Shown here one piece after another: positions 55,218 through 63,632 of a stretch of 64,000 bases of DNA (its first letter is position 1; every line of letters begins with the position of its first letter). This DNA comes from an uncultured delta proteobacterium (GTDB lineage: Bacteria; Desulfobacterota; Binatia; Binatales; Binataceae). Under the pieces are notes generated by a model that was given only the letters and a program-made list of their open reading frames with translations, made no database searches and had not been told where the DNA came from. The stretch spans positions 736,001-800,000 of the forward strand of contig CAVQEQ010000003.1 in the NCBI GenBank assembly GCA_963711565.1, in the 5' to 3' direction. Both the position numbers and the translations under genes were made by a program.

Positions 55218-56421
55218 CTACGTCCCCGACGCTCTAACCGCAGCCCCTTGTGCAGCGCGCGGCGGGAACCAGAACCGCGCGACTTCCGTGGCGCGCACGG
55301 CGTCGTCGATCATCCGCGGGATATCGAAGCGCGATTCCGCCGCCTCGACTTCCTCGATTCGCGCGCGCGTCTCCGGATGCGCCGGCACGAAGAGCGTGCA
55401 GCAGTCCTGGTCGGGAATTATCGACGTCTCGAACGTGCCCAACCGGCGCGCCTGCTCGATAATCTCGTTCTTGTCCATCCCGACCAGCGGCCGCATCACC
55501 GGCAACGCCGCCGCCTTCTCGATCACCGCCATGTTTTCGAGCGTCTGCGACGCGACCTGCCCCAGGCTCTCGCCCGTCACCAGCACGGTGGCCTGCGAGC
55601 GTTCCGCGAGCGCGCTCGCGATTCGCAGCATGAAGCGCCGGTAAAGAATAACGCGCAGCGGGCGCAACGTGTTCGCGACGATTTCGCGCTGCAAGTTTCC
55701 GAACGGCGCCAGCATCAGCGTCGATCGCGCCTGCCATCGCGTCAGATGCGCCGCTAGCTCGGCCGCCTTCTCTTTGCTCGCCGCCGACACCAGCGGATGC
55801 GCGTGAAAATGTACGAAGTCCAGCCGCAGCCCGCGCCGCATCATGCGATACGCCGCGACTGGCGAGTCGATCCCGCCCGACAGCAGCGCCATCCCGCGCC
55901 CGGTAACTCCTACCGGCAGCCCGCCCGCACCCACTATCTTGCCAGGCCGAGACGTACGCGGCGTCGTTCATTATTTCGATCGAAATCGTCAGCTCGGGCG
56001 CGCTCAGATCCACTTCAAAGCCGAGCGCCTCCTGCACTTCGCCGCCGACCGCGCGATCGATCTCGACCGAATTCATCTCGAAGCGCTTGTCCTCGCGCCT
56101 GGTCCGCACCGCAAACGTGCGCGCCTTGCTTCCCGATGCGCGCTTGATCGCTTCGCGCGAGATCGATTGGATATCGCGCGGCGTCGAATAGCTGAGCGAG
56201 AAATTCTGCAGGCCGAAGATCAGCGCCGCGCGCTCGGCCGCGATCTCGTCGCTGAGCTCATCAGGGATTTGCACCATCAGGCGCGGCCCGACGCTGCGGA
56301 TGTTGCCCAGCCAGTAATCGCCGAACAGGTCGCGCAGATTTTGCTTGACCTGGTCGACGAATCGCCACTGATTGCGCCCCTTGAGCGCAATCTCGTGGTA
56401 CCTGCCAATGAGATATCGCAT
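55218..56421 (-). pseudogene. thiI: tRNA 4-thiouridine synthase ThiI with a frameshift near 55946 (possibly a sequencing error)
   Basis: RYHEIALKGRN and the THUMP domain are in one frame. GGLPVG, LLSGGIDSPVA, GESLGQVASQT and DCC are in another. Length 1204 nt. Confidence 0.9.
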
Positions 56422-60067: not shown

Positions 60068-61087
60068 ATGACACCATTGAAGTTGGTTGGCGGGTTCGGG
60101 TCGCCCTACTCGCGGAAGATGCGGGCGGTGTTGCGCTTTAGGCGCATCCCGTTCACCTGGATTATGCGCGGGTCGGCTGAGGATGTTGCTATCCCCGACG
60201 TTCCAGTCGCGCTGATACCGGTGCTCGTCTTCGAGAACAACGAGGCGATGATCGACTCGACCTTTCAAATTAAGCGGCTCGAGAAGATGTTTGCCGCGCG
60301 ATCGATCATTCCGCGCGATCCCGCGATCGCGTTTCTCGACGCGATCCTCGAAGACTATGCCGACGAATGGCTGACCAAGCCGATGTTCCATTACCGATGG
60401 AAGTACGCCGCTGACATTCACAAGGCGTCGCATGTGCTCGCACTCGATCGCAATCCGCTTATGAGCCGCGACACGCTGGCAAAGATGTCGAGCTACATTG
60501 CCGAGCGCCAAATCGAACGGCTGCGCGTCGTCGGCTCCAACGACGTGACGACGCCCGTCATCGAGGCGAGTTACCGGCGCATCCTCGGCCTGCTCGATTC
60601 GCATCTCGTCGGCGGGAATCGATTCCTCATGGGCGCGCGGCCGGGAGCCGGCGACTTCGGCTTCTTCGGCCAGTTGAGCCAGCTCGCGCATTTCGATCCC
60701 ACGCCCGCCGCGATCGCCGCCGCCGAGACTCCGCGCGTCGTCTCATGGGTCTCGCATCTCGACGATCTCTCGTCGCTCGAGGTTGACGACACGCCGTGGC
60801 CGTCGCGCGACGACGCCGCCGCATCGCTGCGCCCGTTCCTGGTCGAAGTCGGCCGCGTCTATGCGCCCTTCCTGATCGCTAACGCGCGCGCACTCGCTAG
60901 TCGCGCGACTGAAGTGCGATGCGAGATCGACGGCCTGCCGTGGGTGCAGCAGCCCTTCCCTTACCAGGGCAAGTGCTTGAGATGGTTACGCGAAGCTCGC
61001 GAGGCGCTGAGCGCCGCCGATCGTGAATATGCGGATGCGGCGCTGAAATCCACCGGCGCCGACTCTATCTTCAGCGCGCCCATCTGA
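60068..61087 (+). CDS. Glutathione S-transferase family protein
   Basis: GSPYSRKMRA, IPVL, DST, EDYADEW and FLMGARP..GDF motifs. Confidence 0.88.
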   Translation: MTPLKLVGGFGSPYSRKMRAVLRFRRIPFTWIMRGSAEDVAIPDVPVALIPVLVFENNEAMIDSTFQIKRLEKMFAARSIIPRDPAIAFLDAILEDYADEWLTKPMFHYRWKYAADIHKASHVLALDRNPLMSRDTLAKMSSYIAERQIERLRVVGSNDVTTPVIEASYRRILGLLDSHLVGGNRFLMGARPGAGDFGFFGQLSQLAHFDPTPAAIAAAETPRVVSWVSHLDDLSSLEVDDTPWPSRDDAAASLRPFLVEVGRVYAPFLIANARALASRATEVRCEIDGLPWVQQPFPYQGKCLRWLREAREALSAADREYADAALKSTGADSIFSAPI

Positions 61088-61118
61088 GAGCGCTTGTACT
61101 CGCGGCCTGCAAGTTCTA

Positions 61119-61147
61119 TTGACCTGCACTGGATGCGTCCATAACTT
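61119..61147 (+). promoter_or_regulatory. Sigma70 promoter giving a leaderless transcript
   Basis: TTGACC-N17-TAACTT, then 7 nt to GTG 61155. Confidence 0.5.
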
Positions 61148-61154
61148 CGATCTC

Positions 61155-61544
61155 GTGAGGCGCAAGATCGAGCATACGTCGGCGTCGCCGGACGATACGC
61201 CATCTCGATTGCAAGCATTGGTCGCGGTGATGCTGCTGTTCACGCTTGCGCTCGGCCTGCACGTTCAACTCGCCAGGTACGACAATCTCTCCACGTTCCC
61301 AACCAGGCATATCCTGCACGGTGACCTCCGACCTGACAGTGGCACGTCGAGCGGAATCTTCACCGATATCCACGACGCGGTCGCTCTCGTATTCGCCGCA
61401 GGTCTGCTGCCGCGCAGCAATGCGGCTCCCAGGCGGTTCTCGGGCTCCGTTGCGCCGTCCGCCGAGCCTGTCGAGCGCGAATTTTTGAACTATCTCGCTC
61501 TCTTCGTGCGTCCGCCTCCTGTGCTTTTCGCAGCGAGCTGTTAG
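61155..61544 (+). CDS. Candidate leader/arrest peptide with signal-like segment and C-terminal RPPP
   Basis: Hydrophobic LQALVAVMLLFTLALGL and the tail LALFVRPPPVLFAASC; directly upstream of the MgtC/DUF4010 gene. Confidence 0.6.
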   Translation: MRRKIEHTSASPDDTPSRLQALVAVMLLFTLALGLHVQLARYDNLSTFPTRHILHGDLRPDSGTSSGIFTDIHDAVALVFAAGLLPRSNAAPRRFSGSVAPSAEPVEREFLNYLALFVRPPPVLFAASC

Positions 61545-61647
61545 TCGAAGCCGACCGGCCGCCTTCGCGAAACCGATGCTTGTCGGCTCGCGATTGGCGT
61601 GTTCCCTATTCGCAAGCAGAAAAGAGAGAGCAAGGAAATCGAAAGAA

Positions 61648-63030
61648 GTGTTTTCAGCATCAGTCGCGCCATTCGCTTACGTTGACGCCGCGTCGAAGAT
61701 TGCGCTCGCAGTCGCCGTGGGCCTGCTCGTTGGGCTGGAGCGGGAGTGGGCGCAGAAGGCGGTCGGCGTCCGCACCTTCGCGATCATCGCGCTGCTCGGG
61801 ACGCTGACTTACCTGGTCGCTCCGCAGCTCGAGATCGCGGCCCTATGCGGAACCTTCCTGCTCGTCATCCTGTTGAACGTCCATCACCTGCTGAAGAGCT
61901 GGCAGTTCCCGACCGCGGATACATCCGCACCCGCAAAAGTCGCGCGCGAGTCCGCGTACGCGATCGATCGCGATGCCCCGCTTGAAATAACCACCTCCGC
62001 CGCGCTGCTGGTGACGCTGATGCTCGGGGCGCTGATCGGACAAGGGCATTACTTCACCGCGATCACGTCGGCGATCGTGATGACGATGCTGCTGGCATGG
62101 AAAGAAGGCCTGTCGCGCTTCGCCGGCGGATTGCAGCCTGAAGAGATACGCAGCGCCGTGCTGCTGGGCCTGCTCACTTTCGTCATCTACCCGTTGCTGC
62201 CGGACAGATTTATCGATCCGATGGATCTGCTGAATCCGAGGCAGTCGTGGCTGATCGTCGTCGTCATCGCGGGACTTGGTTTCGCCAACTACGTGATGCT
62301 GCGGTTTTACGGAACCCGCGGCACCTATTACGCGGCCTTTCTTGGCGGACTGGTCAACAGCACGGCGGCGGCGACCGAGCTTTCCGGTCTCTTCAGAGGA
62401 GTGAACAACTCCTCACTCGCCGTCGCGGTGGTGATGGTGACGAGCGTCGCGATGTTTCTCCGCAACCTGGTGATCCTCGCGATCTTCGCTCCCGCCGCGG
62501 TCGGCACCGCCCTGTTCCCGCTGCTCGCGATGACGATCGCCGCGCTGTGCGCCGTCTGGGTGCATCGCGACCGTGACGGCGCCAGCGTGTCGCCACTCTC
62601 GCTGTCCTCGCCGGTGTCGATGCCTCATGTACTCAAGTTCGCCGCATTATTCGTGACGATCGCCGCGGCCGGCACGCTCGCGGAGCGATACTTCGGTACG
62701 CTCGGATTTCTGGCGCTCAGCGTCCTCGGCGGGTTGGTGAGCAGCGCGAGCACTACCGCCACCGCGGCCACGCTCGTCGCCGCCGGAAGAATCACGCCAG
62801 ACAGCGCCGGGATCGCGGTCGTGCTCACGTCGATGGCAAGCGCGGTCGTCGATATGCCGATCGTTTACCGGCAGATTCGCGACAACGCCGTCTTCTACCG
62901 GCTGGCTGGAGTATCGGTGCTGGTCCTGATAATCGGGCTCGGCGTGATGACGCTGGGACAATCGGAGAGTCACGAAATCCAACGCCTCACCCTGCAAACG
63001 ATTCAAAGCCTGCGGGCACCCGCCCAATAG
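61648..63030 (+). CDS. MgtC/SapB-DUF4010 family membrane protein
   Basis: GLLVGLERE, GVRTF, ITTSAAL, P.LPD, GGLVNSTA and MFLRN motifs. Start GTG 61648 (ORF track gives 61576). Confidence 0.88.
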   Translation: MFSASVAPFAYVDAASKIALAVAVGLLVGLEREWAQKAVGVRTFAIIALLGTLTYLVAPQLEIAALCGTFLLVILLNVHHLLKSWQFPTADTSAPAKVARESAYAIDRDAPLEITTSAALLVTLMLGALIGQGHYFTAITSAIVMTMLLAWKEGLSRFAGGLQPEEIRSAVLLGLLTFVIYPLLPDRFIDPMDLLNPRQSWLIVVVIAGLGFANYVMLRFYGTRGTYYAAFLGGLVNSTAAATELSGLFRGVNNSSLAVAVVMVTSVAMFLRNLVILAIFAPAAVGTALFPLLAMTIAALCAVWVHRDRDGASVSPLSLSSPVSMPHVLKFAALFVTIAAAGTLAERYFGTLGFLALSVLGGLVSSASTTATAATLVAAGRITPDSAGIAVVLTSMASAVVDMPIVYRQIRDNAVFYRLAGVSVLVLIIGLGVMTLGQSESHEIQRLTLQTIQSLRAPAQ

Positions 63031-63119
63031 AGCCCGGGTCACGTTCCAGCTTGATCAAACTTGCGTGACTGTGTAGCTGTACGCGCGTGAGTCAAGAAAT
63101 CCCACTCGGAGCCAAGTCG

Positions 63120-63632
63120 ATGAGCAAGCCGCATCGCGACTCAAGAACAATTCTCGTAATTGCCGTTTTGATTCTCGCCATCGGCGGCGCAGCATCGTTG
63201 GCGCGCGCCGGCGCCGAGGCGGCGCTGATGAACCAGGTCAACGCCGCACTGCGCAGCAACGGCCAACTCAACGGCGCCAAGGCTTACACGGCGGCGGAGG
63301 GCGTGGTCGTACTTTACGGGATGGTCTTCGACGAAAAGGATCGGGTGCTGGCCGAGCAGGTTGCAAATGGAGTGCCCGGCGTCAACTCGGTCGTCGATAA
63401 CCTGCGGACCAAGACCGGCAAATGGCACGAGGAAGAAGAGCGTATCCAGCTGCAAATCCAGAGCAACGGCTTCAATGACGTGCAGGTGCGAGTGGTAGGA
63501 CCTTACGTTTACCTCTCGGGACAGGTCGTCGGCGAGGGCGAGAAGCAGCGCGCGGCCAGTGTGGTTGCGTCGGTCGCGCCGAACAAGCAAATCAACAACA
63601 TGATCTGGGCCCAGCCCCCTCCGATGTTCTAA
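63120..63632 (+). CDS. Double-BON domain periplasmic protein (OsmY-like)
   Basis: Signal peptide, GVVVLYG...VPGVNSVVDNL and a second repeat VYLSGQV...INNM. Confidence 0.85.
   Translation: MSKPHRDSRTILVIAVLILAIGGAASLARAGAEAALMNQVNAALRSNGQLNGAKAYTAAEGVVVLYGMVFDEKDRVLAEQVANGVPGVNSVVDNLRTKTGKWHEEEERIQLQIQSNGFNDVQVRVVGPYVYLSGQVVGEGEKQRAASVVASVAPNKQINNMIWAQPPPMF

Follow-up and report, generated by a model that had tools for sequence, protein, structure and literature searches.

In the genome of an uncultured soil bacterium of the Binataceae (Ca. Binatus), an open reading frame (ORF) of 129 residues probably encodes a RAPP-type peptide that arrests the ribosome upstream of an MgtC/DUF4010 gene and, through this stall, would keep that gene on; its mRNA is predicted to be leaderless. 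An Arg-x-Pro-Pro motif at a near-fixed distance past a histidine motif, together with a position ahead of a membrane protein gene, makes a new ribosome-stalling sensor likely, and this reading is supported by conserved anatomy, selection, spacing, synteny and co-inheritance of the target. Table 1 collects the features, with positions numbered along the window, i.e., the whole 64,000-nt stretch of DNA that was analysed. The earlier note had proposed an arrest-peptide leader linked to the MgtC/DUF4010 gene, and comparative evidence, namely conservation, exchange within R/H-x-P-P and co-inheritance, now strongly supports that proposal; the 129-residue ORF, signal-like stretch, histidines and LFVRPPP ending that it described are all present.

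Table 1. Features of the leader-target region (window positions).
Feature	Position	Strand	Basis
Sigma-70-type promoter: -35 TTGACC 61119-61124, 17-nt spacer, -10 TAACTT 61142-61147	61119..61147	+	Sequence; 13/14 loci
Leader ORF, 129 aa	61155..61544	+	Predicted leaderless GTG start, 7 nt 3' of the -10 box
N-terminal hydrophobic signal or signal-anchor segment (predicted), residues ~20-40	61212..61274	+	Family hydropathy; AlphaFold helix 16-46
HILHGDL motif (H52, H55, G56, D57, L58), candidate sensor	61308..61328	+	Invariant in alignments; pN/pS 0.12
Second, moderately hydrophobic segment, ~33-45 residues before Arg	61374..61412	+	Hydropathy; AlphaFold helix 73-83
CTCTCTT tract	61498..61504	+	Predicted pairing with 61619-61631 in ribosome-free mRNA, this genome only
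RPPP candidate arrest motif, R119-P122	61509..61520	+	R/H-x-P-P in 42/47 proteins; pN/pS 0.07
Conserved intergenic element: hairpin 61566-61592, then GGCG-containing tract	61566..61601	+	Probability ~0.7
Likely Shine-Dalgarno (SD) AAGGA of downstream gene	61632..61636	+	Aligns with GAGGAG/TAGGAG in six other adjacent loci
MgtC/DUF4010 polytopic membrane protein, 460 aa, likely regulated target	61648..63030	+	Pfam PF02308 + PF13194

By sequence comparison, the leader ORF is a real, conserved gene. It comprises 129 codons, five of them for His, and closes with the stop TAG at 61542-61544; a near-identical public protein is also annotated at 129 residues. Searches for homologues returned 15 matches with the single query, 32 by profile and 25 representatives at 50% identity; the family set was pooled from these searches with one near-duplicate excluded and holds 47 proteins, with identity between leader proteins falling to 25%. 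This genome contains no paralog of the leader, and the protein matched no Pfam or NCBIfam family. Three helices make up its AlphaFold model, which lacks a compact domain (pLDDT 63.5, pTM 0.30). At fewer than 300 residues and with a conserved N-terminal hydrophobic segment, seen in hydropathy profiles (Kyte-Doolittle values) and in the AlphaFold model, the leader has the size and localisation signal of RAPP-like upstream ORFs (uORFs), and a second hydrophobic segment reaches its mean hydropathy peak at -39 from the Arg (31 proteins).

By itself, the promoter scores 8/12 against the consensus, and a consensus promoter scan returned nothing, missing the TTGACC-TAACTT promoter that the earlier note had read in the sequence. 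Among the 14 loci with an intact 5' end, however, 13 present a -35 box, a 17-18-nt spacer and a -10 box, and 12 carry a GTG, or once an ATG, exactly 7 nt past the -10 box. The exceptions are L040, which has lost the start codon and has an ATG 12 nt further on, and L055, which lies outside the pattern. The recurrence of the complete layout, start codon included, in 12 of the 14 places the promoter beyond chance and, since no other ATG follows GTG 61155 until residue 26, a leaderless leader mRNA with a predicted transcription start at or near 61155 is well supported. Genome-wide, 79 TTGAY-17-TAnnnT sites were counted in this genome, of which six have an ATG or GTG exactly 7 nt downstream, the commonest offset; five of these six open ORFs of at least 129 residues, so that leaderless genes probably occur in this organism.

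The leader C-terminus reads LFVRPPP (from 61500) followed by seven residues, and a conserved L-x-Y-L-A-L-F helix lies immediately N-terminal to RPPP. An R/H-x-P-P ending, located as in RAPP-like peptides at most 12 residues from the C-terminus, occurs in 42 of the 47 family proteins (RPPP 30, RAPP 10, RGPP 1, HPPP 1); the remaining five comprise one CPPP and four proteins without the motif, whose ends are apparently broken or divergent. Restriction of the variation to this set was counted in favour of the arrest-peptide reading. R/H-x-P-P motifs came out of selection as stallers (PMC10951233), and in mutagenesis of arrest motifs a second-position Pro partly or largely retained arrest: the Ala-to-Pro change in ApdP, equivalent to RPPP, left a Bacillus subtilis reporter low (2.4 vs 1.9 units) and caused partial arrest in Escherichia coli (PMC12992588). 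The same motifs are avoided in this genome, where 1,822 long ORFs contain RPPP five times (22.1 expected) and RAPP five times (19.5 expected), a roughly fourfold depletion not shared by APPP (41 vs 37.5 expected), AAPP or SPPP.

With three consecutive prolines in 30 of the 47 proteins and EF-P encoded in this genome, the run might instead act as a slow stretch that reports Pro-tRNA or EF-P, with no nascent-chain arrest; the Salmonella mgtP leader senses proline (PMC3641672), and PPP stalling in CutF is EF-P-sensitive (bioRxiv 10.1101/2025.02.05.636593). Such a sensor is quite unlikely here, given that the Arg is retained while the first Pro is swapped for Ala or Gly in 11 of the 47 proteins, that tRNA sensing would call for neither a protein of 129 residues nor a signal segment nor a fixed spacing, and that the target is not a Salmonella-type MgtC. 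The analogy with the Salmonella mgtC leader drawn by the earlier note does not hold for the same reasons: the Arg, rather than the proline count, is what the family keeps, and the target falls far below the MgtC cut-offs.

The second conserved element is the His motif, whose H52, H55, G56, D57 and L58 are unchanged throughout the 19-row and 16-row alignments. In all 42 proteins with the ending, the Arg follows the HGDL His by 61-67 residues, and in 24 of them by exactly 64. Selection across 13 loci follows the same anatomy, with pN/pS low at RPPP (0.07) and the His motif (0.12), higher in the 15-residue tail (0.34) and the signal segment (0.39), and highest in the linker (0.81); in sequence comparison, the linker between the His motif and R-x-P-P is thus nearly neutral in sequence and fixed in length. 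An ordinary small exported or membrane partner of the DUF4010 protein, e.g., a His-based ligand-binding accessory with a structural R-x-P-P tail, would also account for the invariant His motif and the tight linkage to the target, and a second small membrane gene does belong to the cassette in seven loci. We nevertheless regard such a partner as unlikely, because of the fixed length of a near-neutral linker, the poorly structured model of the leader, the confinement of the tail to a motif set avoided by the proteome, and the target orthologs outside the leader clade, described below, which have no leader in the ~1.2 kb before them.

For the arrest peptide, the following course of events is proposed. 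The N-terminal segment would bring the nascent chain to the translocon, and the ribosome would stall at RPPP. The ribosome tunnel holds 30-40 residues; the His motif, about 64 residues back, would therefore lie outside the ribosome and may have reached or crossed the membrane. Some 40 residues back, the second hydrophobic segment would sit close to the mouth of the tunnel, and a pull there could end the stall. Arrest might be tuned by such a pull or by a fold that depends on a ligand. The His motif is a possible sensor, and the stall time might be set by ligand binding or protonation there, or by export itself. By covering them, the stalled ribosome would keep pyrimidine-rich leader codons from pairing with the purine-rich stretch where ribosomes bind, so that the target is expressed.

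Fifteen distinct leader loci were compared, duplicates between searches being counted once; two weak matches (G018 and G077; E 0.003 and 0.006) and L035, whose contig ends inside the leader, were excluded. In 13 of the 15, a co-oriented MgtC/DUF4010 gene follows downstream, as the target of a RAPP-like uORF would: directly adjacent in seven and beyond a small two-helix ORF in six. Of the other two loci, one has the two-helix ORF and a DUF4010 stub, and in one the leader is truncated at its 5' end and the available DNA shows no target. The two-helix ORF, an unnamed, conserved membrane ORF of about 87-100 residues, is found in L034, L038 (5568-5831), L042, L043, L044, L054 and L055; it accompanies the most divergent leaders and is therefore probably ancestral, having been lost in the lineage of the window. 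The JGI label 'RcnA', attached to three of the 15 members listed for one cluster, was rejected for this ORF, with no Pfam or NCBIfam support. Neighbouring genes vary from locus to locus, so that the cassette moves as a unit. One locus (L043:3204-9244) places the cassette between a DUF190-CBS gene with a CrcB fluoride channel gene and a split Na+/H+ exchanger with a Usp gene, an ion-homeostasis context absent from the other loci examined; its leader is frameshifted in the assembly, and a close database protein is intact.

Strong leader matches were found in 12 of 165 Binataceae genomes and in none of 306 genomes sampled from other families of the class. The reverse search, which the earlier note had suggested as a check for RxPP-ended ORFs upstream of DUF4010 orthologs, identified a close target ortholog in 25 of the 165 genomes, with the leader upstream in 11. 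All 11 leader-bearing targets belong to one 13-gene clade (support 97/94; target tree with midpoint root only), the two leader-less members of which are a relic and a deletion, a history that fits one gain and two losses. The other 12 of the 25 ortholog genomes fall outside the clade and show no leader in the ~1.2 kb before the target, which was counted against the arrest-leader reading and also speaks against an accessory partner. This patchy occurrence, along with the broken or lost cases (G083, frameshift; G088, stub target; G181, deletion; G013, relic; L036, 5'-truncated copy), would agree with a constitutive or decaying leader of no regulatory role. That view is very unlikely, as both motifs are under strong purifying selection in proteins that diverge down to 25% identity.

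Two of the losses left traces. In L060 (G013), a 29-column relic of the last leader codons precedes the start of the DUF4010 gene by about 95-65 nt, with a local score of 34 that was reached by one of 1,000 shuffles; the Arg codon is gone and the rest of the leader absent. A BON-domain gene stands upstream of this relic and, in the window, downstream. In L067 (G181), the -10 box, the leader and the start have been deleted, so that the leader -35 box directly abuts the DUF4010 gene at about its codon 22.

How a stall would be passed on to the target was considered from the intergenic RNA. The earlier note had described a translational attenuator in which pyrimidine tracts around the motif pair with the purine tract GAAAAGAGAGAG (61619-61630), a switch that the folding predictions bear out only in part. 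Pairing of CTCTCTT with the purine tract is indeed predicted here, with a probability of 0.76-0.93 over four window lengths, and blocking the stall footprint abolishes it (0.00), with SD openness going up from about 0.41 to 0.57-0.67 in this genome. The purine partner, however, is present in only one of the 15 loci and absent from 14 and, given the likely SD at 61632-61636, it sits just 5' of the SD. When the full-length mRNA was folded and the block made longer, the SD did not become more open (0.38 vs 0.42). The second tract, CTTTTC (61524-61529), cannot be retained as part of the main structure, its pairing probability being 0.02-0.13. The sequences AGCCGAC (61549) and GTCGGCT (61582) exist as described, but the stem between them reaches at most 0.09 and yields to the competing intergenic hairpin, of which a core of 3 bp survives when 12 loci are folded to a consensus. 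Rfam gave no match over 60900-63200, and the fold of the 201-nt region is no more stable than that of shuffled sequences (z -0.14).

The aligned loci yielded no anti-SD helix that is conserved and covarying. For six of the seven loci in which leader and target adjoin, leader codons are the main predicted partner of the SD, and opening it costs 1.5-4.7 kcal/mol less once they are blocked. Against synonymous recoding, the effect was matched by 2 of 40 nulls in this genome and by 12-30% in the others, and was reversed in L040. A wider ribosome-binding window opened in 11 of 14 loci, a count in which the block favours opening by construction and small-ORF starts were hand-picked. The distance from the P-site to the next start, 130-216 nt across loci, was counted against the translational route. 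Two long-range helices returned by RNAalifold for the seven adjacent loci, pairing REFL codons with the SD and RPPP codons with the GGCG tract, were rejected for lack of net covariation and for probabilities of about 0.1 or less in this genome.

The same arrest peptide could act on transcription in the manner of CruR, the stall shielding a C-rich, G-poor Rho site and its release letting Rho terminate in the intergenic region; this variant, a possible though less probable form of the arrest reading, is counted within the likelihood given to that reading as a whole. All 15 loci show a surplus of C over G of 12-24 points in their best 78-nt window at the motif, and G occupies the third position of codons -30 to -13 less often than expected (50 vs 77), a deficit shared by 13 of 13 loci. 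A rho gene is present in this genome, the intergenic gaps of adjacent loci measure 89-135 nt and include the conserved hairpin, and the leader is conserved whether the two-helix ORF or DUF4010 comes next. Yet Pro and Arg codons are C-rich regardless, T-ending codons are enriched along the entire leader, and the loci are related, so that the counts are non-independent. Other characterised Sec-type arrest peptides, moreover, mostly act on translation initiation, and SecM does so too (PMC10951233). Unmasking of the SD is favoured only slightly over Rho-dependent termination: the translational helix is predicted in this genome and is not conserved, and Rho-type attenuation fits about equally well.

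The target starts at GTG 61648, and a 460-residue database protein matches its length. It scores 15-20 bits against MgtC cut-offs of 214-255 (NF007431, NF011912). Internal repeats are common in secondary transporters, and the target contains one, between residues ~217-274 and 345-403 (HH probability 89%). Sequence searches of the PDB gave no match, nor did Foldseek at E<=0.001, and our literature search found no functional study of MgtC/DUF4010 proteins. A distant second MgtC/DUF4010 gene, at about 26% identity, is encoded in this genome on contig C4 (~302940-304120, minus strand) and represents the type present in most genomes of the genus.

Among known systems, CruR (Bp2923, DUF2946), located upstream of bfrG in Bordetella pertussis, shares with the leader its place as first gene of the unit, a predicted export signal, a conserved internal motif whose distance to the C-terminal RAPP-type motif hardly varies, poor structure, and a long intergenic region with a C>G bubble (PMC9426467). 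It differs, as described there, in DUF2946, in a CXXC motif where the leader has H-x-x-H-G-D-L, and in a spacing of 45 residues against about 64; the leader is mainly RPPP and predicted leaderless, and it precedes an inner-membrane MgtC/DUF4010 gene, whereas CruR controls a TonB-dependent transporter (PMC9426467). PF11162 (DUF2946) matched none of 32, 16 and three divergent locus proteins, and a CXXC/CXXXC pattern about 45 residues before the motif occurs in only two of the 47 proteins and is not conserved. CutF, upstream of cutO in Rhodobacter capsulatus, likewise has a signal sequence and a C-terminal PPP run, with proposed nascent-chain sensing outside the cytoplasm and release of a sequestered ribosome-binding site; in contrast, the leader lacks the Cys motif, no conserved SD-shielding stem-loop was found for it, and its target is unrelated (bioRxiv 10.1101/2025.02.05.636593).

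ApdA, ApdP, ApcA, SecM and the RQH family are likewise small, carry a localisation signal and have a C-terminal R-x-P-P arrest module preceded by a segment particular to each family (PMC10987492, PMC12992588, PMC10951233). Unlike SecM, ApcA, ApdA and ApdP, the leader precedes not secA, secDF or yidC but a PF02308+PF13194 gene, and its invariant His motif suggests a ligand sensor rather than solely an export monitor. The mgtP/mgtM leader of Salmonella mgtCBR is comparable as a proline-run uORF before a gene with an MgtC-type domain, but mgtP is a short proline-sensing ORF within a transcription attenuator, whereas the leader here has 129 residues, predicted membrane targeting and a conserved Arg (PMC3641672); the target, in turn, is a 460-residue DUF4010 fusion.

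RAPP-type uORFs ahead of diverse genes have already been published (PMC12992588). The literature searched held no description of this leader family or of an arrest peptide before MgtC/DUF4010; the supplements of PMC12992588 might list divergent RAPP members, and the part of them covered contained no MgtC or DUF4010 target. The available sections of the LudP preprint make no mention of RPPP or MgtC.

Few ligand-sensing arrest peptides have been characterised, and the closest two, CruR and CutF, sense copper via cysteines; what the present family adds is another candidate sensor, with a fixed spacing that is longer and a start predicted to be leaderless. More tentatively, and doubtful in its full form, the leader may be the first cysteine-free His arrest sensor of its kind, leaderless, with HxxHGDL at or across the membrane while the ribosome is stalled at R-x-P-P, reading external pH or a metal (Ni, Zn, Cu) and controlling a transporter-like DUF4010 protein. 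If true, this would expose the function of a widespread uncharacterised family; the leader's signal, once found, would be the first functional handle on MgtC/DUF4010 proteins. The natural RPPP/RAPP/RGPP/HPPP series would be useful for tests of EF-P resistance.

Two further observations concern this genome. On contig C1 (~1130960-1131355, plus strand), a second small RAPP-ended ORF with a signal-like segment and a CxxC constitutes a CruR-like candidate without a PF11162 match, that profile having matched nothing in the genome; the long ORF downstream of it presumably resembles an outer-membrane receptor. Within the window, thiI (55218-56421, minus strand) appears split over two overlapping frames, through a frameshift or an assembly error.
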